The notes beneath the pieces are model-generated. The model saw nothing but the letters and a program-made list of their open reading frames with translations. It did not search any database and had not been told where the DNA came from. This document shows positions 1 through 30,738 of a stretch of 49,861 bases of DNA, in pieces. Within the stretch, counting starts at the first letter, position 1. Every line of letters begins with the position of its first letter. Made by a program: the position numbers and the translations under genes. The stretch comes from Candidatus Levyibacteriota bacterium (GTDB lineage Bacteria > Patescibacteriota > Microgenomatia > Levybacterales > UBA12049): NCBI GenBank assembly GCA_038205015.1, contig JBBRCK010000001.1, positions 1 through 49,861 of the forward strand. Reading direction: 5' to 3'.

Positions 1-3000
1 ATAGGTTAACTGCAAGTTACTTGCTCCGGCTGTTACTACCGGGAATCCGACATTAGTTATTTGGAATTGATCCGTAAGAGGAGCAGCAGCTGCATTTACC
101 TGAACATTCTTATTAGTATTAGTAGGAAAGATGACATTACCAGTAGTTGAACCACCAATGGTCAAAAGCTGATTTCTTGCAGTTTGAATAGATCCTCCTC
201 CATTTGTTCCAAGAGTTAAATTTCCAGACATTGTTGCAGATCCTTCATTTAGTCCTGTACCATAAACTTGAAAGTACTGAGCATTGGAAGCAGATGATGT
301 ACTACTGTTTCCAATCAATAAATCATCGGTTACATTTGTAGGGGAGAGAGCTCCTAAGTTTCTCTGCCAGAATCCTCCACTTGTCAAAAGAGTTCCATTG
401 GAATATATATTCTGTCCATAAATATTTCTCCATTGCAAAGCTGCTGTTCCTAAATCAGTAACATTAGTAACACCCGGCACTACATTACCACCGGCTAAGT
501 TATTGGTTGGAGCCAAGGTTATATTTCCTGTAGTTGCTCCACCTAAAGTTAATTGTTGATTTAAAGTTGTCTGTATTTGTCCAAATCCCTGTCTGAAGGT
601 TAACTGTCCTCCAACAGAAGCTGTGCCTACGATATCAAAAAGTGCCGTTGGCGCTGCTGTTCCAATACCGACATTTCCCGTACCTCCAGCTACAACTAAA
701 TAATTGTTTCCAACTTGCAATCCTCCTCCTCCTGTAGAAGCATCAGCATCTCTGATAACAACTGTGCCGAAATCAATATAAACTGTTCCTCCATTTGCTC
801 CAGTTGACCTAATGGCTTTCCCCGAAGGTGAATAAATCATTATACTGTTGGTTGCAGTAATATTTACGGAGCCATTTACGTCTAATTTTTGAGTTGGTGT
901 AGTCGTTCCAATTCCAACATTGCCGTTTCCATTGTTAGGCATTAAAGTAATTGCTCCCGTTGTATTTCCACCAATTGTTAAAAGCTGATTTTTAGTTGTT
1001 TGGATAGAAGCTGTTGTTGAATCTAAAGTAATGCTTCCGGAGATTGAGGCAACTTGATTTCCCCTAGCCTGGGCTGAGTTAAGAAAAGCAAACTTTGCAG
1101 TTGCCGATGACTGCCCGCCGATTAAGAAGTCATCCATTGCATTGTTTGGCACTATAACTCCTAAGTTAGTTAACTCCGTAAAAGGACTAACTCCGCCTCC
1201 GGCTCCGCAGGTTCCAAAGCTAGGAGTAGCTCCACCCAAAAGGCACTGTGTAGCCGTACCAAGATTTGCGGTTGAGGCCCAAGTTCCAGAAGTCACATAC
1301 GGAATACCGGTCCAAGTTGTGCTGTTTTGCCCGGTTCCACCATAAAGTGCTCCAATGGCGGTTCCATTCCAAATGCCGGTTGTGATTGCCCCGGTATTAT
1401 CAACCGTAAATTTTGAAATACCTGAGGCAGAAGCACTGATCAACGGGCTATTTGTGCCTGTGGTGTTAATAGTTAGGGCTGATTGGGCAGAGCTTGAGGC
1501 TAAAATAGCAAATGTATCGTCAACCTCAACAGAGCCAATGGCTGAAGCAATATTGTTGCTGTTTGATGTATTAACTAATGGTTTGGTAAGGTCTATTACG
1601 CCACTTCCATCTGGAGCAATCTGAACATTTCCATTAGTACCTACGTTTGTTGTAAGTAGAAGAGGTTGTCCGGAAAGCTTAAATGAACCACCAATTGATT
1701 GAAAAACCGAACTTCCAGGCGTAAGTGCGCTTCCGATGGTTAAGTTTCCCGAAGAATCTAATGCAAGTATGGTATTTTTAGTTTGTGTTCCTCCTCTTGT
1801 GTCGGTAATTGGAGTCATGCCTTGTAGAGCCTCGGAATTGGCTGCGAATGCTACTGTTGCGAGTTGTTGTCTTGGAGTGAGTTCAGCCGTTGATTCAACC
1901 GTAACGCCTAAAAACAGTGCCGAATTTGAGGCAAAAAGACTTTGGGGAATATTGGTTATGTTTCCAAGTAGAGAATTAAATATTCCATCGGTATCAGGTG
2001 CAACTTGATCTACTTCTTGCCATAAAAGGGAAGAGCCTGTGGCTGCCAAAGTGTCATAAATTGCAAAACGCAAATTAGTAGGCGAGGTTATAGGATTATC
2101 GCTGTTATCGGTTAATCTTCCTTGAAAAGATAAGATTCTGGGTGGAGCACTTGGAGCTGCCGCCAATCCTGGAGTTTGAGCTCCTGCTCTAAAGAATGCG
2201 TTATAAAATCCAAACGTGAGCCCGATTAAAAAGATAACTAGCACGGCAAAGTTAAAGTAGTGAGCAATTGCATAAGAATGATATCTTTTGTACCAATTTG
2301 GTCGGTTATATCTTAAGGTAAACCAGGCCTTTCTATACCAAGGAAAGAATTTGGTCGAGATTTCCAATGGAGCATAAAATTCTTTTTTAATATTTTTTAT
2401 GCCTAGAATATTCTCATGGGAGAATTGTTTAGGAAGGTGAATTCTTTTAGCTTTTTCAAAAATTGGTTTTCCTTTAGCCTGCCATAGAACAATTTCAGCT
2501 TTCTCAACTAGTTTTACCAGTTGGGCAATTAAGGCAAAGTCTAAAGCTAAGCTGATTACTTTTGATATCTTCTGAAATAATCTGATAGGGGCAAAGTTGG
2601 AATATGGCTTTCTTTCTTCTTCAAACTTTGGAAGTTGGGTGAAGGCTGGGATTTGAGCTTCTAAAGATCTGATTTGTGGCTTTTCAACGATAACATTTTG
2701 TGCCTGTGCACCGAGCGGTTTAATAAGATTTTCCTGAGTTGCCCACAGAGTATATTTCCTAAGCGAGGATAGTTTTCGGTTAATTGTATTTGGAGAAAAT
2801 TCACCATGACTTAAAAGTCTTTGTTTGTATTCTTCGATTAGCTTCGCATTGACATGGTTTAAAATACTTGCTTTATCTTCATTTTCTTCCGGCCTTATTA
2901 CTTCTTCTGCCCAAGTTAAGAATTGTTTGATATCAATTAAGTAGTTTTTTATGGTTAAATGCGAGGCATTGTAAACATAAAGAAAGCTTTTAAAATCCCG

Positions 3001-3333
3001 AAGATGCCAAGGATCTGTCGGCTGTTGACTTGCTACTAAAGCTTGGAAAGGACTAATGGGCATTTTACCTTCTAAAACTAAGAAGCCAAAAAATTTACGA
3101 AGGGAAGAAAGATGTCTTTCAAAAGAACTTGCCGAAAAGTTTTCTGCATTATCTAGTTTAAAGCCCTCGATTGTTTGCCTATTGATTGCGGAAGGAGAGA
3201 AGGGAGTTGAATATTTTTGTTCGAACCATTTTACAAAATGATTGACATCAGAAAGATAATTTTTAACCGTAACCCTAGAGGGTACTTTCTCTTGTGAAAA
3301 TAGATAATTTTTAAAGGCAGATAATAAGTCCAT
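1..3333 (-). CDS. Giant membrane-anchored fibre-like protein with two N-terminal integrase core-binding (Phage_int_SAM-like) domains; 3' end runs off the window
   Basis: ATG at 3333, and manual translation finds no stop down to base 1 (1111 codons). The N-terminus has MDLLSAFKNYLFSQEKVPSRVTVKNYLSDVNHFVKWF...SASSFERHLSSLRKFFGFL and a second copy DFKSFLYVYNASHLTIKNYLIDIKQFLTW...SPNTINRKLSSLRKYTLW. Next come a TM helix (HYFNFAVLVIFLIGLTFGFYNAFF, ~2270-2195), then RILSFQGRLTD...LLWQE...DGIF...LTPRQQL, GNVGIGTTTP motifs and IQTxxNQxLTIGGxTTG repeats. Confidence 0.9.
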   Translation of the reverse strand, partial: MDLLSAFKNYLFSQEKVPSRVTVKNYLSDVNHFVKWFEQKYSTPFSPSAINRQTIEGFKLDNAENFSASSFERHLSSLRKFFGFLVLEGKMPISPFQALVASQQPTDPWHLRDFKSFLYVYNASHLTIKNYLIDIKQFLTWAEEVIRPEENEDKASILNHVNAKLIEEYKQRLLSHGEFSPNTINRKLSSLRKYTLWATQENLIKPLGAQAQNVIVEKPQIRSLEAQIPAFTQLPKFEEERKPYSNFAPIRLFQKISKVISLALDFALIAQLVKLVEKAEIVLWQAKGKPIFEKAKRIHLPKQFSHENILGIKNIKKEFYAPLEISTKFFPWYRKAWFTLRYNRPNWYKRYHSYAIAHYFNFAVLVIFLIGLTFGFYNAFFRAGAQTPGLAAAPSAPPRILSFQGRLTDNSDNPITSPTNLRFAIYDTLAATGSSLLWQEVDQVAPDTDGIFNSLLGNITNIPQSLFASNSALFLGVTVESTAELTPRQQLATVAFAANSEALQGMTPITDTRGGTQTKNTILALDSSGNLTIGSALTPGSSVFQSIGGSFKLSGQPLLLTTNVGTNGNVQIAPDGSGVIDLTKPLVNTSNSNNIASAIGSVEVDDTFAILASSSAQSALTINTTGTNSPLISASASGISKFTVDNTGAITTGIWNGTAIGALYGGTGQNSTTWTGIPYVTSGTWASTANLGTATQCLLGGATPSFGTCGAGGGVSPFTELTNLGVIVPNNAMDDFLIGGQSSATAKFAFLNSAQARGNQVASISGSITLDSTTASIQTTKNQLLTIGGNTTGAITLMPNNGNGNVGIGTTTPTQKLDVNGSVNITATNSIMIYSPSGKAIRSTGANGGTVYIDFGTVVIRDADASTGGGGLQVGNNYLVVAGGTGNVGIGTAAPTALFDIVGTASVGGQLTFRQGFGQIQTTLNQQLTLGGATTGNITLAPTNNLAGGNVVPGVTNVTDLGTAALQWRNIYGQNIYSNGTLLTSGGFWQRNLGALSPTNVTDDLLIGNSSTSSASNAQYFQVYGTGLNEGSATMSGNLTLGTNGGGSIQTARNQLLTIGGSTTGNVIFPTNTNKNVQVNAAAAPLTDQFQITNVGFPVVTAGASNLQLTY

Positions 3334-3464: not shown

Positions 3465-3926
3465 GACCCTAGAGTAATATTGGTTGATTACCTCTGATGC
3501 AGTTTATAATAGTCAAATAACCTTGGTCACTGTTGTGAAAATTCGGTAATAAATTTTGTTTTAACGCACAAGGATTTAAATGCGGCTTTATATATTAAGC
3601 TATCGTAACATATCAAATAATATCCAAAATCCTATAACATTAGGTGATATAGTGTGAACTCTTAGGTAAAATATTAATGAAAATCGTAAAAATATTTTAG
3701 CCTCGCAGATTGATAATTGCCTAAGATGAGATACTGCTTTAAATATTGATATGTCAGTTGGGATGGTTGAGTGATAACAATTAGTTAATTTGTATTTAGA
3801 TTGATATGACAACGTTTTATAAAATATTAGCCATAAGTATATAATTTTGACTATTTTGTAATTTAAGGTTCAAAAATAAATGATTAAAAATTGCAAATTT
3901 ATTTTATTTTGAGCATAATAGTTGTA

Positions 3927-4865
3927 GTGAAAAGAATACTGCCCAAAAAAAGATTTAGGATTTTAGATTTAGGATTTAAGCATAAAAAGAAAGTTGTTTT
4001 ATCACTTCTTTTATCATGCTTACTATTATTAATTTCTATTTCAACATCTCATGCGCAGATACGTCCTCCATATGGTGGAGGATTAGACATAGAAGTCTCA
4101 GGAAGGGTAGGAGAGTTATATCTTAATCTTTCGGGATACGCATCGCCACTAGCCACGGTTGAGCTATATATCAATAATGTCTTTATAAGAGGAACAATTG
4201 CTGATGAAAACGGCGTCTTTTATATACCACAAGTTCTAATTAAAGCTGGTTTAACTAATTTTTGCTTGGTTATGGTTGATTATAGGCATGTTGGAAGATC
4301 GGAAAGTTGTTTTGATATTCCTCCGGCTAGTGCGACAGTTGACAAAAAGGAAGTATTCTTACCCCCGACATTGGCTTTGTCCAAAGGTGACATTGCAGAA
4401 GGAGAAGTAACTTTTGCTTATGGTTACACAATGCCTGGGGCAGAGGTTATATTACATGTGGGAGATAATGTGTTTAAGCTCAAGGCTGACAAAAACGGTT
4501 ATTTCAGGCTTGAGCTAAAAGGATTAAAAGCGGGTAAGTATTCAGTTTACGCAACTGCAAAGTATAAGAATTTTACTTCATCCTCGCCCGCGAAAAAACT
4601 GACAGTCCATGTGTTAAATTGGTGGGAGCAATTTTTAAGATTTTTACGAGACTTATGGAACAGTTTTATTAAGCTTTTTACCAATTGGTCCCTAGGGCCG
4701 CTTTGGCTTGTCATACCAATCATTATCCTAATTATTATACTCATCATAAAACTATGGAAAGACAAATTTACGTCGTTTTTTGGAAGTATTCTGCATTTCT
4801 TATTCATATTGATTCCTCGTCCTCGCAGTAAGAAGCTGCACCATGCGTGGTGGGTTGGCTACTAG
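3927..4865 (+). CDS. Secreted Ig-like domain protein with C-terminal membrane anchor
   Basis: Signal peptide ending SHA-Q, two beta-rich Ig-like repeats (GYASPLATVELY; GYTMPGAEVILH) and a C-terminal TM helix. The track start is TTG 3891. GTG 3927 is preferred because TTGCAA(3891)-17-CATAAT(3914) lies just upstream. Confidence 0.75.
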   Translation: MKRILPKKRFRILDLGFKHKKKVVLSLLLSCLLLLISISTSHAQIRPPYGGGLDIEVSGRVGELYLNLSGYASPLATVELYINNVFIRGTIADENGVFYIPQVLIKAGLTNFCLVMVDYRHVGRSESCFDIPPASATVDKKEVFLPPTLALSKGDIAEGEVTFAYGYTMPGAEVILHVGDNVFKLKADKNGYFRLELKGLKAGKYSVYATAKYKNFTSSSPAKKLTVHVLNWWEQFLRFLRDLWNSFIKLFTNWSLGPLWLVIPIIILIIILIIKLWKDKFTSFFGSILHFLFILIPRPRSKKLHHAWWVGY

Positions 4866-4884
4866 TATATAGAATATAAAAAAC

Positions 4885-5260
4885 ATGAATGACAAGAAAA
4901 AGATAGAAAGCTTAATAGATTTGTTAATTTGAAAAAAGCACATGAGGGGTATTTGATATTTGTAAGATTACTACAGACCTTGCTAAAGAAGAGGAATATT
5001 CGTTCTCTAATCAAATGAAGAGGGCGGCAATATTAATTAGTTCAAGCGTAGCGGAGGGTTTCTCAAGGAGAAGCAATAAGGAGAAATCTCAGTTCTATTT
5101 TATAGCTAAAGGTTCTCTAACTTAACTTCAGAATCAACTTTTGGTGGCAAGTGACATTGATTATTTACAGCAAGATAGGCTTAAATTAATACCAGATAAG
5201 ATAGTCAAGATTCACAAAATGATAAACACTTTTATAAAAAATATAGCTTCTAAATACTAA
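4885..5260 (+). pseudogene. Four-helix-bundle protein (23S rRNA IVP / TIGR02436-like) pseudogene
   Basis: MNDKKKIESLIDLLI*KKAHE, a frameshift, then VFDICKITTDLAKEEEYSFSNQMKRAAILISSSVAEGFSRRSNKEKSQFYFIAKGSLT*LQNQLLVASDIDYL. The family motif Q.RRAA.S...N.AEG is recognisable. Two stops and one frameshift. Confidence 0.85.
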
Positions 5261-5286
5261 ATTCTAGATTCTTGTAAAGCAAAGCT

Positions 5287-6297
5287 TTATTCTTTAGGGG
5301 ACTGTGCGGTTTCTTCTTTTACTTCCGGTGTTTCAGAGTGTTCTTTTTCAGCCTCTTTAGTGCCTTTAGAACCGTCTTTCTTCCTTTTCTTGAAGTACAT
5401 CCATCCGAGTATTATTGCAACGATTATGAGTATTATTACGACTGTGATTCTCCATGGAAATACCCAGAAGTAAACAGTAGCTGTTAATGGAAGGTTGTTA
5501 TTAATTCCATAGTTTGCCAAGAGTTCTGCTTTGTATCTTCCAATCATTAGGGTTTGTCCAATTGTGTTTTCGAAGTCTCTGGCTGCTTCAGGGAAAATGT
5601 CGTGTTTTGATAAGTCTTCGGATTTATTAAAGAATAATCCCGATACTGTGATTGTACCCTTTGGTGAGAAATGCAAATCTCCCATGTTTTTGATTTGAGT
5701 TAATATTTTTACCGGTCCGTATTCTTGGAAAGGATTAGCAAAGAATTTAACTACATTTGCTTTTTCTGTTACCGGTCCATTAACCGTAATCTTGAATAAG
5801 CTTCCTACTTGAGATTGAACCACTCCTCCGGAATTCTTACTGCCGGCACTTTTAACATCAGGAGTATAAACAACGGCTGCATAGTGTCCTCCTGGCCTTG
5901 CATTAAATGGAACTCTTAAATAATAGCTTAAGGTTTGATTTTCACCTGGTTTAAGAGTAAAGGTGGATGGAGAGATCCCCAACCATGCTGCTGCTGAATA
6001 TTTATTATTTAAAGTCCCAGGAGGTAAGATGTTTGGTGTTCCAACGGAATCTACGACTGTAAAATCTTCTACGGCCGCTTGAAAGGTAAGTGGTACATTT
6101 GATTGGTTGATTACTTTGGTTACTCCTTCAACATATTTTCCCGGATCAAGTTTTTGTTCAACAACCGGGTAAACAACCGTAATGGTTCGGGTAATTTCTT
6201 GAGCTGTAGCAATTCCAACTACTGAAAAGACAGTGGAGAGAGCTAGTCCTATTATTAAGTTCCTTTTTAAATTGTTTATTTTAGGCAGTTTTTTCAT
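5287..6297 (-). CDS. DUF916/DUF3324-like (WxL-interacting, PapD-like fold) membrane-anchored protein
   Basis: Signal peptide, WL.ISP..FTL.PGE, PGGHYAAV, KNMGDLHFSPKG, GRYKA, and a C-terminal TM helix with a basic tail. Confidence 0.75.
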   Translation of the reverse strand: MKKLPKINNLKRNLIIGLALSTVFSVVGIATAQEITRTITVVYPVVEQKLDPGKYVEGVTKVINQSNVPLTFQAAVEDFTVVDSVGTPNILPPGTLNNKYSAAAWLGISPSTFTLKPGENQTLSYYLRVPFNARPGGHYAAVVYTPDVKSAGSKNSGGVVQSQVGSLFKITVNGPVTEKANVVKFFANPFQEYGPVKILTQIKNMGDLHFSPKGTITVSGLFFNKSEDLSKHDIFPEAARDFENTIGQTLMIGRYKAELLANYGINNNLPLTATVYFWVFPWRITVVIILIIVAIILGWMYFKKRKKDGSKGTKEAEKEHSETPEVKEETAQSPKE

Positions 6298-6300
6298 ATT

Positions 6301-7809
6301 TTAGAATGTTGCCGTTGCAACGTAAGTAAATATTGTTCTGTAAATTCCAGGAGGGGTGAGTGATGTGATTGTAGCTCCGTACATTACTGCTGTTGTTTCT
6401 GCCGCTACTGGACCCAAAGAATATGATGCAAGCGTGTCGTAGAAATTGTTCGTGCCTGTATTCCAAGGGTTTGAGAACTTAGCTGTTCCATTGCTTCCGG
6501 CATCTGGCGCTGTACCTGCGTTTACCCATTGATCAGTATTTACAGCAGCTGTTCTTGATCCGCAAGCATGAATACCGAATGTTTGTGTTCCCAATCCGGT
6601 AATACTGATTACGGCTGGTGCCGGTAAATTATTATTTGTTAATCCATTTCCTCCGTTTGCATCAGAAAAGTACATTCCGCTTGCCGGATTTATAAATCTA
6701 CCGGAAGATGTGGCGGTGAGAGCATAGCCTGATGCTCCGTTAGTTGATACGGTGAGTCCCTGAAGAGCTTTGCTTAAAAAGTTTGGTCCAAGAGAGCCCA
6801 AGTCTACAAAGGTTGCTGTTGCTGTAAGACCTGAGTTTGAGAGTATTGAAACGCCGCAGCCACCGTTGGTAACAGGAGCTGAATTGGCATCTGTTCCACT
6901 GGCAAATCCGGTTATGGAGAAAGTAAGGGTTGGTTCAACCGTTCCTTGCACTTGAACGGAATCTATTGTTGCAATTTTAGCTGATCCAGTATCTAAAACA
7001 ACTGAACTTGCATCTTGCGTTTGAAGTCCGATTTTCCAATAATCTGCAGTACAAGTGGTTGCGCCTACGCAAGCCTGACCGGGAGACCTGGTTGGGTTAA
7101 CTAAAGCAGGAGTTGAAGAACCAATCGTAATGGTAACCGTTACAGCTCCGTTGATTTGAGCGGTTTGCACTAAGCAGGTTATAGATGGTGTACTTGGGGA
7201 TGTATTCGAGGTAGAGTGTGAGAAAGTACAAGTGGTTGCACCGGAAGAAAAAGATGCCGAGATATTTGTATCCTGAAGATTGTTAAATCCAAAACCGGTT
7301 GCAGAAGGAGAAGCTAAATTAGATCCCAGGATGTTATCGGTTATAGTTGGAAAAGTTATTATTATTTTTCCATTTACAGGAATTGAAGAGATAGTTGTAA
7401 ATTTAATTACATGTACTGCGGTTATTTCTTCAACAAGTGGTTCTCCACTATGATGTAAATTAGTTGTTGAGTTTGTAAAGTAAACTGTTCTTTGATTGGC
7501 GGCAGGGATTCCGGCAGCAGACATCGACGCGACGTTAAGTGAGTTAAGAGTTTCTCCTTTATCCCAAAGGTGTGCGCTATCTGAGGCAATAAAGTAAGAG
7601 CCGTTATCATAAATTACTGTCTGTCCGGATCCAACAGCTAAATTTGCTCCAGCAGTAACAAATATTGGTGCAGATGCGGAGGGTCTGGAAGTTGAGATTG
7701 TATCTGAAATACCCTGAAGTGAGGCTGCATTTGCTTTTTGGACAGAAAGCAAAGCAAATAAGACAATTATTCCTAGGAGAATTGAACTGTGTTTTATAAA
7801 TCGATTCAT
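6301..7809 (-). CDS. Secreted pilin/WxL-like surface protein (large, class B)
   Basis: Signal peptide, Ser/Thr/Gly-rich beta protein with Cys pairs, VQVQGTVEPTLTFSI, VSTNGASGY, and C-terminus PGIYRTIFTYVATATF. Confidence 0.65.
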   Translation of the reverse strand: MNRFIKHSSILLGIIVLFALLSVQKANAASLQGISDTISTSRPSASAPIFVTAGANLAVGSGQTVIYDNGSYFIASDSAHLWDKGETLNSLNVASMSAAGIPAANQRTVYFTNSTTNLHHSGEPLVEEITAVHVIKFTTISSIPVNGKIIITFPTITDNILGSNLASPSATGFGFNNLQDTNISASFSSGATTCTFSHSTSNTSPSTPSITCLVQTAQINGAVTVTITIGSSTPALVNPTRSPGQACVGATTCTADYWKIGLQTQDASSVVLDTGSAKIATIDSVQVQGTVEPTLTFSITGFASGTDANSAPVTNGGCGVSILSNSGLTATATFVDLGSLGPNFLSKALQGLTVSTNGASGYALTATSSGRFINPASGMYFSDANGGNGLTNNNLPAPAVISITGLGTQTFGIHACGSRTAAVNTDQWVNAGTAPDAGSNGTAKFSNPWNTGTNNFYDTLASYSLGPVAAETTAVMYGATITSLTPPGIYRTIFTYVATATF

Positions 7810-7839
7810 TTAATAAATACTTTAATAACTACTATTACT

Positions 7840-7868
7840 AATATGTGAGTTTTGAGATAAAAAGTCAA
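7840..7868 (-). promoter_or_regulatory. Sigma70-type promoter for 6301..7809
   Basis: TTGACT-17bp-CATATT on the minus strand. Confidence 0.5.
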
Positions 7869-7930
7869 GTAGCATTTTTACTACAATTTGAAGCTATTAT
7901 GTGTTCTCATGAGTAATTATGTGATTTAAA

Positions 7931-8935
7931 TTACACTTTTAAGCTCATTCTCTTTTTAACTCTTATTACTATATATATTGTTAAGCCAATAATTAGCAAA
8001 AGCCCCAGTAAATATTCCAAAGGAAAAGCGAAAAAAGCAATTCGTTTTCTAAAAACAGGGCCTTCGTTAGAAAGCGAAAGCGTTAAGTTTGCCGTATACG
8101 GTCCTAAAAGGAATTTTTCAGGCCAAATACTTACAGGAAACTGGTTTTTTTCAACCACGGCCTTAATTTTTTCATAATCCTTATCTGACGTGGTGGTTGA
8201 TTGAAGGGAGTCGGGGATTCGTCTCACGCTATTAGATAGTACGTTTTCCGGTAGCAGTAGCACTTTGCCAACTGCCTGACCAAAGAAGTTTTTAATAATA
8301 ATGTCGCCTTTTATGGTTATAAAGTGGTCACTGGTGTTTCTAAGCCGGATTGTAAACGGAACAGGGCCCTTAAAAGTTAAAAACGGAGAGGAGAAATCTT
8401 CGATTATTCCGTCGGTTTTGCCGGTTGGACCAACTGTGAGAAGCACATTGCTGGCAATTCCGGCCGATGCGCCGGTTGAATTTGAGGTATTGTTACCCAC
8501 GGGATTTGAAGTAAAGACGATCGAGAAATAATAATCTCCTTTGGGCTGGTCAACAGGAATTATAATTCTTAAGTTTAGTTCTTTTTTTTGTTTGGGAGAA
8601 AGGGTAATCGTGTCTATTTGGTTTCCGTTATCCGTAATTATTACTTTTTGGAAAAGGTTTGGATCGGGAAAATTACTTGAATCATCGGCAAAAGTTACTT
8701 GCCCGTTTTCATCTTGTGAAGCGGTAAAAGGCTTAAGAGAAAGCTTTAAATCTACCGGATTTTCGGTGAAGTTTTCGATTGTAAAGGGCGCATTTATATC
8801 GGATGGGGTAGTAGCTTGGACTTCAAAGATTGGTGGGTAAATGCCTATGTCAACGCCTTGCGCGTGCACTGCGTTTACAGACTTAAGATTTAAGATTAAA
8901 GAGATAAGAATAATTAAAATAATTTTTATTTTCAT
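7931..8935 (-). CDS. DUF916/DUF3324-like membrane-anchored protein
   Basis: Signal peptide, IYPPIFEV, PKGDYYFSIVF, RNTSDHF...G.I.I.N.FG, GPYTA, and a C-terminal TM helix with a basic tail. Confidence 0.75.
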   Translation of the reverse strand: MKIKIILIILISLILNLKSVNAVHAQGVDIGIYPPIFEVQATTPSDINAPFTIENFTENPVDLKLSLKPFTASQDENGQVTFADDSSNFPDPNLFQKVIITDNGNQIDTITLSPKQKKELNLRIIIPVDQPKGDYYFSIVFTSNPVGNNTSNSTGASAGIASNVLLTVGPTGKTDGIIEDFSSPFLTFKGPVPFTIRLRNTSDHFITIKGDIIIKNFFGQAVGKVLLLPENVLSNSVRRIPDSLQSTTTSDKDYEKIKAVVEKNQFPVSIWPEKFLLGPYTANLTLSLSNEGPVFRKRIAFFAFPLEYLLGLLLIIGLTIYIVIRVKKRMSLKV

Positions 8936-8936
8936 A

Positions 8937-9665
8937 TCAAAAAGTAGGTGTTGCTATATAGTTTAATATACTTGTATATAGTCCTGCTGCTTGAGTATTG
9001 GTAACATTTACCTTATATGTTATATCAGATTTTCTGCTTCTTGACACAGTAGTGGAACTCATTACAACTGTGGCTGAAGGAGAGGATATAAAGGGTTTGT
9101 AAAAAGTTGAGTTAGTAAATCCAGTTGCGCAATCCGTGCCGGTGACATTGGCACAATTATACCCAAAACCATATACCAGACTGCTTGACCAAACAGCTGC
9201 GGTTGACGGAGTACAATTTCCGGCGTCACAAGTTGTGGCAGGAATCTCGCGGCCGGTAGAATTAACTCTTAAGTTGTGATTTTGTGAAACAGTGACTTGA
9301 TATCCACGAGCGGAGTCATTAGATACCGTAAGTCGATTGGCTCTAGTTACCGGTGTGCCAGGAGTGATTAGTCCAAAATCAATAAGAATAGTTGAAAGAG
9401 AAAATCTAAAAGGATAAATGGAATATATATACTGAAAGCCCGCTCTGACCTTGAAATTAGGTCCGGTAAAAAGATTTGCGCCTGTTTGTCCAACAGTAAA
9501 GCTTACTTTATAGTTTGGTCCGGTTGGTTTTCCGGCAACAGAGTTAAGATTACCCATTCTAATAATGTAATTATTATTAGTCATGGTTTGAGCGCTTGCA
9601 GAACCCATATATAAAAGAAGATAAATTATGCTTAAAACAAGCACAAAGTAGAAATTTTTAATCAT
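8937..9665 (-). CDS. Secreted pilin/WxL-like surface protein (class A)
   Basis: Signal peptide, N-terminal xNY repeats, IDFGLITPG, VSNDSARGY, two Cys pairs, and C-terminus AAGLYTSILNYIATPTF. Confidence 0.65.
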   Translation of the reverse strand: MIKNFYFVLVLSIIYLLLYMGSASAQTMTNNNYIIRMGNLNSVAGKPTGPNYKVSFTVGQTGANLFTGPNFKVRAGFQYIYSIYPFRFSLSTILIDFGLITPGTPVTRANRLTVSNDSARGYQVTVSQNHNLRVNSTGREIPATTCDAGNCTPSTAAVWSSSLVYGFGYNCANVTGTDCATGFTNSTFYKPFISSPSATVVMSSTTVSRSRKSDITYKVNVTNTQAAGLYTSILNYIATPTF

Positions 9666-10297
9666 AACTTGGATTCTTGTCTTAAATCTTCTGTTTCCTC
9701 TAATACTTCGTTTAGTTTTTCCATATCTTTTTCCTTTAAGTTTTGTTTTTCATCTTTAATTACTGCTTCGATATCCTCAGAAATCGTATCTGCGGCGTCT
9801 TTTGTTCTTTCTTCCAAGCTTTCCAGTTCTTCCTGTTGATCTTCATTTCTTCTGTATTCTTTGCCAAAGAAAAAAGCCAACGGGGAAATAAGTACCAGTG
9901 AGCCAAGCTTTAAGATATTATTGGTAATATCGTTTCTCATAACTTCCGGAGCAAAAACTAAAAGTGCGCCAATCACAAAAATAAAAGTAATTGAGGGTTC
10001 AAAAACAAACGAAATGCCAAATCCTAAGAAATATAATAGGAAGAAAAGAGGCGAGTTAATCGAATCGGTTGAAAAAATAAGGATAAAAATAAGCGTATTA
10101 AGGATAAAAATTCCCCAAGGGCCTTCGCCGCCTAAGTTTAAAAATCCTTTGCCTTTGTTTCTAAGCGAAGCAATCAAATAAAGGGCAATTAAAAGTCCTA
10201 AAATAGGAGTAGTAAGGGAAGACAAGGGGGTCATTTCAAATATAAATATTAAAATGAAAGAAAGGATTAACACTAAGCTTTCGGAAATTATCTTCAT
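9662..10297 (-). CDS. Multi-pass membrane protein with C-terminal acidic coiled coil
   Basis: About 5-6 hydrophobic helices (including NSPLFFLLYFL) followed by an E/K/D-rich helical tail. It overlaps the next gene by 4 bp. Confidence 0.8.
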   Translation of the reverse strand: MKIISESLVLILSFILIFIFEMTPLSSLTTPILGLLIALYLIASLRNKGKGFLNLGGEGPWGIFILNTLIFILIFSTDSINSPLFFLLYFLGFGISFVFEPSITFIFVIGALLVFAPEVMRNDITNNILKLGSLVLISPLAFFFGKEYRRNEDQQEELESLEERTKDAADTISEDIEAVIKDEKQNLKEKDMEKLNEVLEETEDLRQESKL

Positions 10298-10303
10298 ACT
10301 ACT

Positions 10304-10350
10304 ATCGTAGGCAATATGTTGTAAAAGTTCAAGTAGACTTATGCTATACT
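10304..10350. promoter_or_regulatory. Divergent, probably leaderless promoters for 9662..10297 and leuS
   Basis: Minus strand: TTGAAC-17-TACGAT, 6 nt, ATG. Plus strand: extended -10 TGcTATACT (10342-10350), 6 nt, ATG 10357. Confidence 0.6.
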
Positions 10351-10356
10351 TTAGCT

Positions 10357-12612
10357 ATGAAAAAAATAGGAAAATACTTTCCAAAAGATGTCGAACCAAA
10401 ATGGCAGGAAATCTGGGCCAAAGACGGACTTTATAAGTTTCCAAAAAATCCTAAAAAGAAATATTATAATTTAGTTGAACTCCCGTATCCTTCGGGTGAT
10501 TTACATATGGGGCATTGGTTTAATTTTGCAACCGCTGACGTGCACGCAAGATATAAAAGAATGTCGGGATTTGATGTTTTTTTCCCAAATGGCTTTGATG
10601 CTTTCGGTTTACCGGCAGAAAACGCTGCAATAAAACACAATATTCATCCCAAAGATTGGACAATGAAAAATATTGAAACCATGACTTTGCAGTTTAAAAC
10701 CATAGGGACAATGATTGACTGGGATTACACTACAATTACTTGTTTACCGGAATTTTACCGCTGGAACCAATGGATTTTCTTAAAAATGTTTGAAAAAGGG
10801 ATTGCATACAGGGGTAAGGCTTTGTCTAATTGGTGTCCGGTAGATCAAACAGTTTTGGCAAATGAACATATCGAAGCGGGAAAATGTTGGAGATGCGGTA
10901 GCGAAGTTATTCAAAAAGAAGTCGAGCAATGGTTTTTAAAGATAACCGATTATGCCGACAGTTTAATTTGGCCTGAAAATCCAAAAGTCGACTGGCCAAA
11001 AGAAGTCAGAGAAGGGCAGAATAACTGGATTGGAAAAAGTGAAGGAATGCTAATTGATTTTGGAGAGATAGGGGTTTTTACCACCAGGCCGGAGACGTCG
11101 GACGGTGCTACGTTTTTGGTAGTTGCGCCGGAGCATAAATTCGCACAAGCAATAGAATCACAAGAAGTTAAGGATTACATTAAGCAAGCCTCAAAAAAGA
11201 CTGAGATGGAGAGAAAAGAAGACCGAACAAAGTCGGGAATCTTTACGGGTAAATATGTTAAAAATCCGGTAACAAATAAAGATATTCCGGTTTGGGTATC
11301 CGATTATGTATTAGCAGGATATGGAACAGGTGCGATAATGGCGGTCCCATTTGCCGATGAAAGAGATAAGGAATTTGCTGAGAAGTTTAATCTTCCAATT
11401 GTTGAGACCTCGTTTAAAGCTAAGCCCGAGGGTAAAAAAACCGTTAATTACCATCTTCGGGATTGGTCGATATCAAGGCAAAGGTATTGGGGAACGCCAG
11501 TTCCAATAGTTTACTGTGCTGAATGCGGATTAGTACCGGTTCCAATGGCTGATTTGCCAATTGAACTTCCTTATAATGTTGATTACACGCCAAAAGGCAA
11601 GCCGCCACTAGCAACAGACGAAGAATGGTTAAACGTAAAATGTCCAAAATGCGGGCACGATGCAAAAAGAGATGCAGAAACCTTAGACACCTTCTTTGAT
11701 AGTGCCTGGTATTACTATCGTTATGTTTCACCTAATTTTGATAAAGGTCCATTTGACGAAAAGGAAGTTGGAAAAATTATGCCGGTTGACGTTTATGTTG
11801 GAGGCTCGGAGCATATTTTGGGTCACACTTTGTATGCTCGGTTTTTCACAAAGTTTTTCAAGGAAATTGGCTTGGTTTCATTTGATGAATTTGCTTTAAA
11901 AAGAGTTCAGCACGGAGTAATTTTAGGACCTGATGGGAATCGTATGAGTAAAAGCAAGGGAAACGTGGTTAATCCTGACAAAGTGGTAAAGGAATATGGT
12001 GCTGATGCGGTAAGGCTTTACCTTTGTTTTATGATGCCATACGAAGCAACTGCGCCATGGTCAACGGGGGCAATTTCGGGAATTTATAGATTTTTAAAAA
12101 GAATTTGGGAGTTGTCAGAAAAAGTTGAAACAGTACATCCCAATGTATCAGACCTTACTATGATGCATAAAACAATTAAAAAAGTAGGGGATGATTTAAA
12201 CAATTTTCATTTCAATACTGCGGTTTCAAGCCTGATGTCTTGGTTAAATTATTTAAGCGTCAAGCAGACTTCAAAAGAGGAATACGATACTTTTTTGAAG
12301 CTATTAGCCCCATTTGCGCCACATATTACCGAGGAACTTTATCACTTAAATGACTTAAGTGCTAACTCGATACATTTAGATAATTGGCCGACAATTCAAT
12401 CTAAATACTTAATTGAAGAAGAACTTAGGATCGTCGTGCAGGTTAACGGTAGATTAAGAGATACAATTATAACGCAAAATACAAATCTTAAAAATCAAAA
12501 CTTAATCGAAGAGGAAGCGAAGAAATGTGTTAATGTTCAAAAATATCTGGAAGGGCAGGCAATTAAGAAAGTAATTTATGTAGAAGGTAAGCTGATTAAT
12601 TTTGTTATTTAA
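10357..12612 (+). CDS. leuS: Leucine--tRNA ligase
   Basis: PYPSGDLHMGH (HIGH), GFDAFGLPAENAA, DWSISRQRYWGTP, RMSKSKGN (KMSKS), and C-terminal VQVNGRLR. Confidence 0.98.
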   Translation: MKKIGKYFPKDVEPKWQEIWAKDGLYKFPKNPKKKYYNLVELPYPSGDLHMGHWFNFATADVHARYKRMSGFDVFFPNGFDAFGLPAENAAIKHNIHPKDWTMKNIETMTLQFKTIGTMIDWDYTTITCLPEFYRWNQWIFLKMFEKGIAYRGKALSNWCPVDQTVLANEHIEAGKCWRCGSEVIQKEVEQWFLKITDYADSLIWPENPKVDWPKEVREGQNNWIGKSEGMLIDFGEIGVFTTRPETSDGATFLVVAPEHKFAQAIESQEVKDYIKQASKKTEMERKEDRTKSGIFTGKYVKNPVTNKDIPVWVSDYVLAGYGTGAIMAVPFADERDKEFAEKFNLPIVETSFKAKPEGKKTVNYHLRDWSISRQRYWGTPVPIVYCAECGLVPVPMADLPIELPYNVDYTPKGKPPLATDEEWLNVKCPKCGHDAKRDAETLDTFFDSAWYYYRYVSPNFDKGPFDEKEVGKIMPVDVYVGGSEHILGHTLYARFFTKFFKEIGLVSFDEFALKRVQHGVILGPDGNRMSKSKGNVVNPDKVVKEYGADAVRLYLCFMMPYEATAPWSTGAISGIYRFLKRIWELSEKVETVHPNVSDLTMMHKTIKKVGDDLNNFHFNTAVSSLMSWLNYLSVKQTSKEEYDTFLKLLAPFAPHITEELYHLNDLSANSIHLDNWPTIQSKYLIEEELRIVVQVNGRLRDTIITQNTNLKNQNLIEEEAKKCVNVQKYLEGQAIKKVIYVEGKLINFVI

Positions 12613-19436: not shown

Positions 19437-20009
19437 ATGGAAAGAACATTAGTGGTATTAAAACCGGATGCAGTAAAAAGAGGTTTGATTGGTCAGATTC
19501 TTACACGTTTCGAAAATGTTGGATTAACAATTGTGGCTGTTAGGCTAGTTACCGCAAAAAGAGAGCTAGTTGAAAGGCATTATCCGGAGAATAGGGAAGA
19601 ATTATGGGTTGGAATAGGTAATAAAACCCTCGAAAACTACAAAGCCTTCGAAATTGACCCGAAAGAAAGTCTTGGAACAGACGATCCTAAAGAAATCGGT
19701 AAAATGGTAAGAGTTTGGTTAATGGATTATATTATGGAAGGACCAGTTTTAGCCTTAGTTTTACAAGGTCCACACGCAGTTGAGCTGGTCAGAAAGCTGG
19801 CTGGACACACTCTTCCATTAATTTCGGCACCGGGTACAATCAGAGGAGATTTTTCGTTTGATTCTTCTTATCTTGCCAACAGCAGCAAAAGACCAATTAA
19901 AAACTTAATTCATGCATCAGGAAATAAAGATGAAGCTGAATACGAAATACCACTTTGGTTTACAAAAGAGGAAATCCACGATTACAAACGCTCCGCAGAC
20001 GTTATCTAA
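19437..20009 (+). CDS. ndk: Nucleoside diphosphate kinase
   Basis: ERTLVVLKPDAVKRGLIG, PGTIRGDF, NLIHASG (catalytic His). Confidence 0.95.
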   Translation: MERTLVVLKPDAVKRGLIGQILTRFENVGLTIVAVRLVTAKRELVERHYPENREELWVGIGNKTLENYKAFEIDPKESLGTDDPKEIGKMVRVWLMDYIMEGPVLALVLQGPHAVELVRKLAGHTLPLISAPGTIRGDFSFDSSYLANSSKRPIKNLIHASGNKDEAEYEIPLWFTKEEIHDYKRSADVI

Positions 20010-20436
20010 CTTGCTTCTCTTTTCTAAAATTTAAATAAGCTAATATCAGAATTCCGGTTGAAATTGCTTCGGATGTTAGGCAATATTGGCAAAAAGCATG
20101 GAGAATAAAAGCCTGAATTACAATTAACGCGACCGAAACCATAAATCCAGTTATCGAAAGAAGATAAAACGCGTTTAAATAAATCTTTTTATAATTTGTA
20201 AGAAGCAAAGTACAGATAACCATCACCAAAAGGTAGAAGACAGAGCCTAAAAGCGCAACAGAAATTGGTCCGATGGTTGCATATTGACTGGTTAAAACCT
20301 TTTCGCAGTTAGCGATAACAGAACAGGGTGGAACAATGTTTTTATAATGCAGAATTGTTAGGTAAGTTGCGACAATAAAACCTAAAAAACCTAAGATTAA
20401 AGAGTAGAGGATTAACTTATTTTTTGTTGAGTTCAT
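20002..20436 (-). CDS. Vitamin K epoxide reductase (VKOR) family protein
   Basis: C..C.KVLTSQY loop, CQYC active site, four TM helices. Confidence 0.92.
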   Translation of the reverse strand: MNSTKNKLILYSLILGFLGFIVATYLTILHYKNIVPPCSVIANCEKVLTSQYATIGPISVALLGSVFYLLVMVICTLLLTNYKKIYLNAFYLLSITGFMVSVALIVIQAFILHAFCQYCLTSEAISTGILILAYLNFRKEKQVR

Positions 20437-21157
20437 TATTAATTAATTTTTTAAGATCATCATAGCTTCCAGGGTTGGTTATTTTTACTCCGTTTAAGAT
20501 AAAGGTTGGGGTTGAATTAATTCCTTCTGAAAGCGCTTGCTGTTCTGAAGCATTTACGTAGTTTTTAACTTCATCTGAGGTTAAATCTGTTTGGAATTTT
20601 TTTAAATCAAGCTTTAATTTCCTGGCATAGTCCATAAATGTACCTGTTGGGTCTGAAGTCTCCGCCCAATCTTTTTGATTTGTAAACAAAAGGTCAGACA
20701 TTTCAAATAAATTATTTTGCTTGTAGGCGGCGTATGCAGCTTGCGCTGAGATGTGGGAATTAGGATGAAGGTTGGTTAAAGGAAACATTCTGTAGGCAAA
20801 GTAAACCTTTCCGTTAAAATCACTCAAAAGTTGTTTTACCATTGGATGATATGTCGCGCAGGCCGGACATTGAAAGTCGGAGTATTCAATTAAAGTTAAT
20901 TTTGCTTTTGAATCTCCGTTAGTAATGTCTCTTGCGGTAACCGGAGCAACGTTCACTTTTTCTGTTGAAGTGACTGAAGAAGGGGAGTTTACTAGCCAGA
21001 CCAAGCCTAAAATGACCAGGCCAATTAACAATGCTCCGCCGGCCCAAACAGAATATTTTTTAAGCTTTACGTTTCTTTCTTCAAGCTTAGCTTTTTCCTG
21101 CCATTCGATTTTTCGTAGTTCCTTTTTTTCTTTCTTGGTTAATTTTTCTTCGGACAT
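20417..21157 (-). CDS. Membrane-anchored DsbA-like thiol-disulfide oxidoreductase
   Basis: EYSDFQCPAC (CxxC) and GINSTPTF (cis-Pro); partner of the adjacent VKOR. Confidence 0.93.
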   Translation of the reverse strand: MSEEKLTKKEKKELRKIEWQEKAKLEERNVKLKKYSVWAGGALLIGLVILGLVWLVNSPSSVTSTEKVNVAPVTARDITNGDSKAKLTLIEYSDFQCPACATYHPMVKQLLSDFNGKVYFAYRMFPLTNLHPNSHISAQAAYAAYKQNNLFEMSDLLFTNQKDWAETSDPTGTFMDYARKLKLDLKKFQTDLTSDEVKNYVNASEQQALSEGINSTPTFILNGVKITNPGSYDDLKKLINNELNKK

Positions 21158-21606: not shown

Positions 21607-22377
21607 ATGAATAAGAAAGAGGTTTTAAAATTTTTAATACTTAGAACTGTTGGAAACTTTCTTGTTTTATTTGCAATTTTTGGAATTTTGGCAACTTTTG
21701 GACCAGCGATTTATTACGAAGTAAGCTATAAAGTCCTGCAATTTAGGGGAGTGAGATACGTAATTGCTGCAACTTCTACGGTTTTGCCTTCACCATCTCC
21801 AACTCCTACTCCTATTTCGGGTCAGCCTGTAATTACACCTATAGTTACTCCTATTCCTACTCCAACACCCGTAAAGTCAATTGGAGTTGATAATTTTGGA
21901 CAAGTTTTAACTGGACCACAAGTGCAAATCTTAACGCCGAAAGATACTAAATTTTCTATTATAATTCCAAAAATTGGAGCTTCGGCTAAAATTTATCCAA
22001 ACATTGATCCCTCCAGTGAAAATGATTTTTTGCCTACCCTAATGAAAGGCGTTGCTCATGCAAAAGGAACTGTTTTTCCAGGAATGAAGGGGAATATTTA
22101 TCTCTTTGCTCATTCAACTGACAATTTTTGGGATGTTGGAAGGTATAATGCAGTTTTTTACCTCTTAAAAGACCTACATCCGGGGGATGATGTTGTCATA
22201 TTTTTTGAAAACAAAAGGTACGATTACATAGTAAAGTCTTCTAAAATAGTTAGCCCTTCGGATGTTTCTTATATAGTAAATAGTCAAAAGCAAAGTAAAG
22301 AAACTTTAATTCTTCAGACTTGTTGGCCTCCCGGAACCACGTGGCAAAGATTATTAGTATTCGCAGAACCTAAGTAA
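21607..22377 (+). CDS. Sortase
   Basis: N-terminal TM, Pro/Thr linker, IIIPKIG, GVAH, NIYLFAHS, LILQTCWPPGTTWQRL (His/Cys/Arg triad). Confidence 0.93.
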   Translation: MNKKEVLKFLILRTVGNFLVLFAIFGILATFGPAIYYEVSYKVLQFRGVRYVIAATSTVLPSPSPTPTPISGQPVITPIVTPIPTPTPVKSIGVDNFGQVLTGPQVQILTPKDTKFSIIIPKIGASAKIYPNIDPSSENDFLPTLMKGVAHAKGTVFPGMKGNIYLFAHSTDNFWDVGRYNAVFYLLKDLHPGDDVVIFFENKRYDYIVKSSKIVSPSDVSYIVNSQKQSKETLILQTCWPPGTTWQRLLVFAEPK

Positions 22378-30108: not shown

Positions 30109-30132
30109 ACATAAATGATAGCATAATCTGTA

Positions 30133-30738
30133 GTGAAGAAAATACTGGTTTTAACAATTATTATTATATTTATTTTTGCAGCAGCTTTTGCTTATATAAT
30201 GTTGAATAAATCTGCCAAAGGCCTGTCGCAAGCAGAGAGAGATGCCGCTTTATCCAATCTGTTAGGAAGAAAGCTTAATTTATCCGATAAGGTGGTACAA
30301 AAAGACTATGTTCTGCATAACGGCAAGTACGTTAGTTTTATTTATCCCAAAGATGCCAAGCCATTTGATGAACAAAATCAGCCAGGAGGGCCATATTACA
30401 GTAAGGACGCGCTAGAAAATTTTACTTTTAGTTTGCAAAGTCCTTTTCTATGGGGATCAATTCGTGTTTTGCCAAATACACCTGGAATGTCAAGATTGGA
30501 AGACTATTCAGGAATCAGAGTAAGAAGACTTGACCCTAATAATTATAAAGAAAGCGAGATTACAATTAATGGAGTTAAAGGCCTCCAATATGAAAGTATT
30601 AATATCTCATCAAACACAAAAAAGGAAGCGTTTTTTTATTTAAACAATAGAATTTATTTTGTATTATCAGAAGGAAACAGTAAAAGTGATTTAGTAAATT
30701 TATTTGAAAAAGTAGTTGGTTCGTTGAAGTTTTTATAA
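30133..30738 (+). CDS. Membrane-anchored PsbP-like protein
   Basis: N-terminal TM, SFIYP, ITINGVKG, and C-terminal FEKVVGSLKF, typical of PsbP-like folds. Confidence 0.6.
   Translation: MKKILVLTIIIIFIFAAAFAYIMLNKSAKGLSQAERDAALSNLLGRKLNLSDKVVQKDYVLHNGKYVSFIYPKDAKPFDEQNQPGGPYYSKDALENFTFSLQSPFLWGSIRVLPNTPGMSRLEDYSGIRVRRLDPNNYKESEITINGVKGLQYESINISSNTKKEAFFYLNNRIYFVLSEGNSKSDLVNLFEKVVGSLKFL

Follow-up and report, generated by a model that had tools for sequence, protein, structure and literature searches.

We analysed a 49,861-nucleotide (nt) stretch of a Candidatus Levyibacteriota genome (positions 1 to 49,861 of contig JBBRCK010000001.1, called here the window), and in it a cluster of pilin-like and chaperone-like genes from a bacterium of the Candidate Phyla Radiation (CPR). 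Four open reading frames (ORFs), encoding proteins of 242, 334, 502 and 336 amino acids (aa), were verified on the minus strand exactly where a first-pass annotation of this DNA had placed them (Table 1). As that annotation had described, secreted beta-rich proteins (242 and 502 aa) are interleaved with proteins of two domains that have a membrane helix at the C-terminus (334 and 336 aa). The translations of all four begin with a signal-peptide-like hydrophobic stretch, and those of the 334- and 336-aa proteins end with a hydrophobic helix followed by basic residues. Since the stop of the gene for a 211-aa protein overlaps the start of the 242-aa gene, the operon comprises at least five genes. 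A scan of positions 4800-10500 for promoters and terminators returned chance-level counts (20 against 15.3 +/- 3.4 and 5 against 4.7 +/- 2.4, respectively). Of the sequencing runs listed, one DNA run and no RNA run contains this stretch.

The two secreted proteins had been said to share three motifs, a description that required slight adjustment. VS(T/N)xxxxGY is exact in both (VSTNGASGY and VSNDSARGY). The C-terminal strand reads GIYRTIFTYVATATF in the 502-aa protein; in GLYTSILNYIATPTF, its counterpart in the 242-aa protein, one T of the proposed pattern is N. The x(V/I)xP.(L/F).FS(I/L) strand, VEPTLTFSI in the 502-aa protein, reads IYPFRFSL in the 242-aa protein, where the spacing from P to FS is one residue shorter. 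Plain BLASTP between the 242- and 502-aa proteins aligned the last strand only (E 0.005), and when the whole genome was searched with a profile of the 502-aa family (56 relatives), the last 150 residues of the 242-aa protein were matched at E 2.0e-9. By BLASTP, the 334- and 336-aa proteins are paralogues (27% identity across 113 residues, E 2e-10), the former scoring 43.7 bits against the family profile of the latter. On these sequence comparisons, the resemblance within each protein pair is more than chance.

Table 1. Positions in the window of the cluster genes, their candidate functional segments and the flanking genes
Feature	Position	Strand	Basis
211-aa polytopic membrane protein with acidic coiled-coil-like tail, first gene of the operon	9662..10297	-	ORF
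242-aa secreted protein, PamT-like candidate tip subunit	8937..9665	-	Sub-threshold matches to NF058579 and NF058581
334-aa membrane-anchored chaperone paralogue (PamC/D-like), DUF916-like N-domain	7931..8935	-	PF06030, paralogy
502-aa secreted two-domain pilin (PamA-like), candidate shaft subunit	6301..7809	-	NF058581, hhalign, AlphaFold2 (AF2)
Linker strand of the 502-aa pilin, residues 285-301, with VEPTLTFSI; candidate donor strand	6907..6957	-	
C-terminal incomplete Ig-like domain of the 502-aa pilin, residues 302-502	6304..6906	-	
336-aa membrane-anchored chaperone (PamC/D family), two beta-sandwich domains and C-terminal transmembrane helix	5287..6297	-	
Segment 153-167 of the 336-aa chaperone, predicted donor strand for the pilin groove	5797..5841	-	
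N-terminal strand 33-45 of the 336-aa chaperone (QEITRTITVVYPV), predicted partner of the pilin linker	6163..6201	-	
C-terminal transmembrane helix of the 336-aa chaperone, residues 282-309	5371..5454	-	AF2 and hydrophobic sequence, then KKRKK
324-aa Ig-like protein with signal sequence and C-terminal transmembrane helix, convergent neighbour	3891..4865	+	

Homology to the Pam pilus of CPR bacteria

The main text of a recent preprint (Troman et al., bioRxiv 2026, PMC13278184) describes the Pam pilus of Candidatus Mycosynbacter amalyticus (Saccharimonadia). There, the two-domain pilins PamA and PamB were identified by cryo-electron microscopy (cryo-EM) of the filament, in which the inter-domain linker strand is donated to the open C-terminal immunoglobulin (Ig)-like domain of the neighbour. 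PamC and PamD are PapD/FimC-like proteins with a C-terminal membrane helix, for which a chaperone role was proposed, and the operon also encodes the single-domain tip protein PamT, the pilin PamE and an RbmA-like anchor, PamR, an usher being absent. With the homologues that it reports from Saccharimonadia and Microgenomatia, and with the NCBIfam families NF058578, NF058579 and NF058581, this preprint (PMC13278184) describes in CPR a kind of system that the first-pass annotation had taken to be uncharacterised there. As a canonical operon for comparison we used locus L079 of genome G218, from the same phylum, which encodes PamT and PamR at scores that exceed their cut-offs (295.5 and 355.7 bits, respectively), together with three Pam_pilin_C proteins and a membrane-anchored protein of 330 aa. 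Two tandem pilin genes of this locus (8950-11817, minus strand; 452 and 449 aa) are near-identical, with most differences at the extreme C-terminus. A second Pam-like locus of this genome lies near 766-771 kb.

No protein of the cluster rose above threshold in Pfam. With NCBIfam release 20, residues 331-502 of the 502-aa protein matched positions 2-148 of the 148 of NF058581 (CPR_Pam_pilin_C; E 1.1e-5, 25.5 bits), a family also matched by residues 95-242 of the 242-aa protein (E 1.5e-6, 28.4 bits). Relatives of the 502-aa protein numbered 447 at E <= 0.001 among 8000 candidates scored, and NF058581 was matched by all 56 that were aligned, the best at 8.4e-11. Profile comparison of the 502-aa family with a canonical Pam pilin extended over 208 columns covering the linker and the C-terminal domain (hhalign 95.6%, E 1.2e-8), and the C-terminal strand, GIYRTIFTYVATATF, is near-identical to that of the canonical pilin of L079, GIYSTTLTYVATATF. 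The linker of the 502-aa protein, which aligns with the canonical one, is amphipathic and conserved, with V285, V287, Q288, V291, P293, T296, I299 and G301 near-invariant; by analogy with the cryo-EM description of Pam (PMC13278184), it is a candidate donor in subunit exchange.

Regarding the 242-aa protein, an N-terminal region with a triple N(Y/F)K hairpin precedes a Pam-type C-terminal pilin domain, and two pairs of cysteines (C146, C151, C171, C179) are conserved in its family. Residues 4-130 matched positions 3-129 of the 241 of NF058579 (CPR_pilus_PamT; E 2.7e-9, 36.8 bits). The comparison of its family with canonical PamT (hhalign 69.7%, E 4.2e-5) was weaker than that of the pilin, and the protein appears to resemble the tip pilin weakly.

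The 336-aa protein has 408 relatives, and phmmer aligned it with the 330-aa protein of the canonical operon at 83.8 bits, compared to 32.3 bits for the 334-aa protein. The 336-aa family was further compared with chaperones adjoining Pam pilins that exceed the cut-off. Such a homologue of the 336-aa protein stands next to the pilin at nine of the 12 loci that surround the best Pam_pilin_C matches, and hhalign of these nine with the 336-aa family gave 100% (E 9.5e-47, 265 columns). The genome under study (727 kb, estimated completeness 100%) encodes five chaperone paralogues, all inside the window. Usher (PF00577) matches were absent from it at E <= 0.1, the E. coli control being positive, and PapD_N (PF00345) was likewise unmatched in this genome, in line with the usher-free system that had been proposed.

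The gene order is conserved. A scan of species-representative genomes gave 66 related loci, the named ones nearly all from Levybacteria/Levyibacteriota. The full order was found in 23 loci, with leuS on the minus strand, the 211-, 242-, 334-, 502- and 336-aa homologues on the plus strand and the 324-aa homologue on the minus strand. Of the loci, 56 extend more than 1200 nt downstream, and 48 of these include the 336-aa homologue; 56 extend more than 2200 nt upstream, and 36 of these include both the 242- and the 334-aa homologues. The 211-aa homologue stands directly upstream of the PamT-like gene in 38 of the 66 loci, and the 324-aa homologue, found in 52 of them, is convergent in type I and the first gene in type II. 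In a second layout, found in 14 loci (L015, L018, L020, L021, L024, L032, L037, L039-L041, L048, L051, L054 and L060), the 324-aa gene comes first and a co-directional pilin gene follows, PamT-like, 334-aa and 211-aa genes being absent. Thirteen of these 14 loci have a chaperone gene and nine a second pilin gene; L039 has two pilin pieces and no chaperone match.

The distribution was further examined in 401 genomes sampled evenly across the phylum; the tallies include the unpublished genome G154. Pam_pilin_C was matched in 118 of them (33 over cut-off) and in none of 14 control genomes, and the chaperone profile in 170. Both were found in 104 genomes, the pilin alone in 14 and the chaperone alone in 66; as the genomes are related and not independent, no test statistic is claimed for this co-occurrence. 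These data bear on the proposal that the proteins form a non-pilus secreted lattice or a set of enzymes or adhesins sharing Ig-like folds, with membrane proteins acting as receptors or anchors unrelated to folding. Such folds are indeed common, many of the fold matches reported below fall at Z 7-12, and the 211- and 324-aa neighbours carry no assigned function. However, the homology to Pam chaperones is one of full-length sequence (E 9.5e-47) and goes beyond fold, and pilin and chaperone genes are strictly adjacent in many genomes, so we consider a non-pilus set very unlikely.

Predicted folds and a predicted pilin-chaperone complex

The AF2 model of the 502-aa protein (predicted local distance difference test, pLDDT, 79.1) comprises an Ig-like N-domain (residues 28-285) with an insert (49-129), and a C-terminal domain. 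The insert resembles phage tail domains (7w1c_A, Z 11.0). With the whole model, Foldseek returned integrins, MSCRAMMs and a few chaperone-usher pilins, all with a TM-score below 0.2, and sequence searches of Protein Data Bank chains with the 502- and 242-aa proteins and the 336-aa family profile gave nothing meaningful. For the C-terminal domain, the best solved folds were the borderline matches TLP-1a (9ikj_A, Z 8.1, 153 residues aligned, root-mean-square deviation (rmsd) 3.5) and TLP-1b (9ikk_A, Z 7.6). The TLP-1a/b fibrils (CryoSeek, PMC11494351) are also assembled by donor-strand exchange; unlike in the cluster, the donor described in that source is an N-terminal strand from protomer n+4, and the fibril is a tubule. 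The nearest predicted relative of TLP-1 is a Flavobacteriales protein. On account of this relative and of the borderline Z, the idea that the TLP-1 pond fibrils are CPR pili was rejected.

The N-domain of the 502-aa protein resembles Ig-like pilin and adhesin domains, among them those of the sortase pilins SpaD (4hss_B, Z 9.0) and SpaA (Z 7.9). This likeness could be taken to indicate a sortase-assembled pilus of the Gram-positive type, in which the 502-aa protein would be polymerised and covalently linked to the wall by the sortase encoded at 21607-22377, all the more as the same window encodes both that sortase and an LPPTG-bearing protein. Yet Z scores of this order are common among unrelated Ig-like folds. 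Moreover, the secreted proteins end in ...ATATF or ...ATPTF, without LPxTG, hydrophobic tail or basic anchor, and the sortase gene lies 12 kb off, outside the conserved synteny. Sortase assembly of this cluster thus appears extremely improbable.

The 336-aa protein was modelled (pLDDT 82.3) as two beta-sandwiches, with strands in residues 45-172 and 180-279, followed by the helix. In this free model, residues 31-41 and 150-160 are disordered (pLDDT below 50). Foldseek placed an enterococcal WxLIP protein at the top (9i1y_A, E 1.3e-10), followed by CfaA, CupB2, CsuC, FimC and RbmA. In a second comparison, by VIA-align, the WxLIP chains 9i25_C (Z 14.5, 222 residues aligned, rmsd 7.2) and 9i1y_A (Z 13.9, 226, rmsd 7.5) were again the closest, ahead of the chaperones CfaA (4y2o_A, Z 12.0, 192, rmsd 5.4), CsuC (6fq0_C, Z 11.7, 178, rmsd 4.6), FimC (3bwu_C, Z 11.6, 182, rmsd 5.5) and Caf1M (2os7_C, Z 11.6, 189, rmsd 6.0). 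The L-shaped fold of two Ig domains is thus shared with the chaperones of the classical chaperone-usher pili (Pap/Fim, CFA/I, Csu and Caf1; Z 12.0 for CfaA and 11.6-11.7 for FimC, CsuC and Caf1M), as would be the principle of donor-strand complementation and exchange. Unlike these systems, the cluster has a membrane-anchored chaperone and two-domain pilins, and it lacks an outer membrane, an usher and any PapD_N sequence match, so that the likeness is at the level of fold only.

A complex of the mature 502-aa pilin with the ectodomain of the 336-aa chaperone was then predicted. It scored 0.80 (0.81, 0.79 and 0.80 in the individual runs), compared to 0.13 for the best of three controls. Of 157 solved complexes, 116 attained the score mark, as did 2 of 215 mismatched pairs, counts that are only rough for this complex because our own alignments were used. 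The runs shared at least 95% of contacts, and the pLDDT of the partner was at least 85. In the model, chaperone residues 153-167 sit between pilin strands 331-340 and 488-502, which border the predicted acceptor groove of the C-terminal domain, and the expected error is lowest there. Chaperone residues 33-45 pair with pilin linker residues 292-301, at expected errors between 0.9 and 1.3 A. The two chaperone segments at the interface coincide with those that are disordered in the free model, and the N-terminal one holds the invariant residues of the family (Q33, E34, R37, T40 and P44). The prediction supports, without showing it, that the 502-aa pilin binds the 336-aa chaperone.

A predicted 1:1 interface would suit permanent as well as transient binding. 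It is therefore also compatible with a static complex of the WxL/WxLIP type, in which secreted adhesins would stay monomeric, held permanently at the cell surface by DUF916-like membrane proteins, without a fibre being made; the DUF916-like N-domain of the chaperones and the position of WxLIP as nearest solved structure would agree with this. On the other side, the C-terminal domain and linker of the pilin are homologous to those of the filament-forming Pam pilins known from cryo-EM (PMC13278184), and the linker strand is among the most conserved stretches of the 502-aa protein. In addition, WxL clusters are themselves now read as donor-strand-exchange pili in the main text of a second preprint (10.64898/2026.10.17.759780). 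A static complex is accordingly unlikely in our view.

Taken together, our observations on gene structure, homology to Pam components, folds and conserved synteny, and the controls passed by the predicted chaperone-pilin interface, argue that the cluster is very probably a divergent operon of Levybacteria (Microgenomatia) encoding a CPR pilus of the Pam type, assembled by donor-strand exchange with the help of chaperones and without an usher. Like Pam, it encodes secreted pilins whose C-terminal, incomplete Ig-like domain ends in an aromatic residue, a conserved linker strand, and two-domain chaperones with a C-terminal membrane helix that are homologous in sequence, without an usher. Here again a tip-like gene comes first, the 242-aa protein corresponding to PamT in size and in operon position. 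Unlike in Pam, the pilin and chaperone genes are interleaved (tip, chaperone, shaft, chaperone), the N-domain of the pilin has a phage-tail-like insert, and in place of PamR, PamB and PamE there are two membrane proteins, a conserved one of 211 aa and an Ig-like one of 324 aa. The cluster adjoins leuS, whereas the canonical L079 operon adjoins ATP synthase genes.

Several points weigh against assignment to the Pam type. All NCBIfam matches to Pam families are below the curated cut-offs, which are 55 bits for NF058581 (25.5 and 28.4 bits obtained) and 240 bits for NF058579, an equivalog (36.8 bits obtained). Equivalents of PamR, PamB and PamE were not detectable: the PamR family NF058578 had no match at E <= 1 among six proteins scanned, and the family of the 324-aa neighbour reached 2.3% against canonical PamR in hhalign. 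The fold matches of the pilin are weak (Foldseek TM-score below 0.2 for the whole protein, Z 7.6-8.1 for the C-terminal domain). As complexes of like fold have been solved, both in chaperone-usher systems and for WxLIP-WxL (9i25), the pass of the complex prediction may partly reflect this likeness. Finally, donor-strand exchange between 502-aa subunits is proposed by analogy with Pam.

In the mechanism that we propose, all proteins of the system would be exported by Sec, and the 334- and 336-aa proteins would be held in the cytoplasmic membrane by their C-terminal helix. A strand of the DUF916-like N-domain of the chaperone (residues 153-167 of the 336-aa protein) would fill the open groove of the pilin's Ig-like C-terminal domain beside its last strand, while the conserved N-terminal strand of the chaperone would hold the pilin linker. 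For polymerisation, the linker of one 502-aa subunit would displace the chaperone strand from the groove of its neighbour. The order of subunits would begin with the 242-aa PamT-like protein, which is encoded first and would probably start the fibre as its tip, and anchoring may be provided by the adjoining conserved 324-aa protein, which may hold the fibre base. The fibre would probably serve in host or surface contact.

Chaperone link to the WxL/Elr pili of Bacillota

In E. faecalis, the elr WxL cluster builds the ElrD pilus by donor-strand exchange, according to the main text of Sleutel et al. (bioRxiv 2026, 10.64898/2026.10.17.759780). The priming chaperone is ElrE, a membrane-anchored DUF916/DUF3324 protein (WxLIP) whose strand 141-152 is parallel to the pilin's C-terminal strand, and the system is said there to be confined to Bacillota. 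Its pilins, ElrD and ElrC, carry a WxL domain (see also Hassan et al. 2023, PMC10599100). The main text of the Pam preprint (PMC13278184) makes no mention of WxL or DUF916, and that of the Elr preprint (10.64898/2026.10.17.759780) none of Pam, CPR, Candidate Phyla or Patescibacteria.

The 334-aa protein of the cluster matched PF06030 (WxLIP_PGBD, formerly DUF916) at E 7.9e-6 and 26.3 bits, just under the gathering score of 27.3 bits (26.6 bits in a six-frame search), and the 336-aa protein had no PF06030 match in the Pfam scan. The family was matched by 16 of 53 relatives of the 336-aa protein and by 7 of the 9 chaperones adjoining bona fide Pam pilins (best 7.5e-8). It exceeded the gathering score in a paralogue from the second cluster of the window (31.2 bits), and in the six-frame search in two paralogues (33.7 and 29.4 bits). 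The DUF916-like label given to the membrane proteins by the first-pass annotation is therefore right at the level of the family, PF06030 being found in relatives and paralogues. The WxL label given to the secreted proteins was not borne out by sequence, since the cluster proteins did not match PF13731 (WxL) at E <= 1, nor was this family matched elsewhere in the genome. DUF3324 (PF11797) was also unmatched in this genome at E <= 0.1. A WxL chain was absent from the best 50 fold matches of the 502-aa model, a set filled by matches to the N-domain and uninformative on the C-terminal domain.

Across the 401 CPR genomes, PF06030 was matched in 149 (93 over its cut-off of 27.3 bits) and PF13731 in 30 at E <= 0.01 (10 over its cut-off of 25 bits), many of the latter matches standing beside PF06030 matches. 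Adjacency of WxL and DUF916 was verified at three loci: L085 (G329:C5:43500-49500), with WxL at 39.6 bits and the neighbouring DUF916 at 32.9 bits; L086 (G020:C8:15000-19414), with WxL at 23.7 and 17.3 bits and DUF916 at 55.9 bits; and L087 (G089:C3:3000-8000), with WxL at 21.2 bits and DUF916 at 55.2 bits. At L086 and L087, the DUF916 gene is flanked by genes for sub-threshold WxL proteins. The Levybacteria chaperone profile aligned with the DUF916 protein of L087 over 251 columns (99.2%, E 3.5e-19). Given these PF06030 and profile matches and the WxL-DUF916 loci, the chaperones of Pam-type and WxL-type clusters form one sequence family, and clusters of both types occur in CPR. We also observed that the C-termini of the sub-threshold WxL proteins resemble Pam pilin ends (for example ...GSFTATATITVS).

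[quoted passage not shown] The predicted donor segment 153-167 is positioned in the DUF916 domain as ElrE 141-152 is described to be (10.64898/2026.10.17.759780). Unlike WxL/Elr, the cluster has neither a WxL domain nor, in its own genome, a DUF3324 match, and its PF06030 match is just sub-gathering for the 334-aa protein and missing for the 336-aa one. The candidate donor strand is the inter-domain linker in the cluster, compared to an N-terminal extension in WxL/Elr. An LPxTG base subunit is likewise missing from the cluster, the sortase and the LPPTG protein being encoded elsewhere in the window.

The DUF916 domain in Pam chaperones, the WxLIP fold match and the CPR WxL-DUF916 pairs suggest that Pam pili and the WxL/Elr pili of Bacillota probably share ancestry. 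On balance we lean towards a broader interpretation, in which the two would be branches of an old superfamily of monoderm pili, characterised by the priming of subunits, through donor-strand complementation, by a DUF916-type chaperone anchored in the membrane. Both branches would be present in CPR, often side by side, and the Levybacteria cluster would look intermediate. If so, the system may be neither exclusive to CPR nor confined to Bacillota. What is new here is the chaperone link between the CPR and Bacillota systems, which the main text of neither preprint states.

Neighbouring genes and significance for CPR bacteria

The 211-aa protein had no family match at a meaningful score in Pfam or NCBIfam. 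Its atlas neighbours are Levybacteria clusters at 0.98, together with a 6TM_PilS cluster at 0.81 that is a lead only, and its conserved position suggests that it may have a role in the system. The 324-aa protein matched CarboxypepD_reg (30.2 bits) and Big_6 (22.8 bits) below threshold, and its atlas neighbours are Microgenomatia clusters and, as a lead only, PKD-bearing Saccharimonadota clusters at 0.79-0.80. Its identification as PamR itself was rejected, homology being absent (hhalign 2.3%). Synteny would make it a candidate base or anchor, an analogue of PamR with no detectable homology to it.

A second Pam-like cluster occupies positions 29179-35142 of the window (minus strand), with secreted proteins of 368 and 365 aa, both ending in ...GSF, followed by three membrane-anchored chaperone paralogues of 355, 367 and 309 aa. 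These paralogues scored 37.7-61.5 bits against the canonical Pam chaperone, and the 368-aa protein matched the N-terminal region of PamT at E 2.9e-7. The secreted proteins are weakly like the families of the first cluster (5.6% and 47.2%). Adjoining the second cluster, a 605-aa NHL-repeat protein (27372-29189, minus strand) carries an LPPTG motif and a hydrophobic tail. The sortase gene (21607-22377, plus strand) matched TIGR01076 over cut-off (44.0 against 39.35 bits) and classes D, C and E below threshold. Judging by these motifs and matches, a sortase-anchored surface protein is also present in the same monoderm.

A VKOR-family gene and a gene for a thioredoxin-like lipoprotein lie side by side at 20002-21157 (minus strand). 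This pair would fit disulfide formation in exported proteins, the 242-aa family having two conserved cysteine pairs. The ORFs at 36085-43614 (plus strand, 2509 aa) and 43622-46381 (minus strand, 919 aa) had no NCBIfam match at E <= 0.001. At the window's edge, an open-ended ORF of 1111 aa (1-3333, minus strand) shows an odd combination: two stretches within its first ~200 residues match the N-terminal part only of XerC/XerD recombinases, and there is a weak match to a Bdellovibrio mosaic adhesive fibre domain at residues 393-462.

The mechanistic core of the first-pass annotation, an assembly of pilin-like subunits by membrane-tethered chaperone-like proteins, was thus essentially right, in agreement with the Pam chaperone homology, the WxLIP/PapD-type fold and the predicted interface. 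A complex model of subunit and neighbour, which it had proposed as a check, gave a predicted 502-336 aa interface that passed its controls (0.80 against 0.13 for the best of them), and the neighbourhood survey it had also suggested showed that the gene pairs co-occur across genomes (66 loci and the 401-genome sample). In the fold searches, the 336-aa protein proved to be like WxLIP and PapD-type chaperones, and the matches of the whole pilin were weak.

CPR bacteria spend their lives attached to other microbes, a contact for which their surface fibres are prime candidates. The cluster described here extends the Pam-type usher-free pilus to Levybacteria, in a layout that is distinct and strongly conserved and that includes two membrane partners without names. 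Its chaperone link connects two systems that were described separately in 2026, the Pam pilus of CPR and the WxL/Elr pilus of enterococci and their relatives. If their shared ancestry is true, usher-less, chaperone-guided donor-strand exchange would be an old and widespread route of fibre building in single-membrane bacteria, and the biochemical tools of Enterococcus, a tractable system, would become applicable to proteins of uncultured CPR bacteria.

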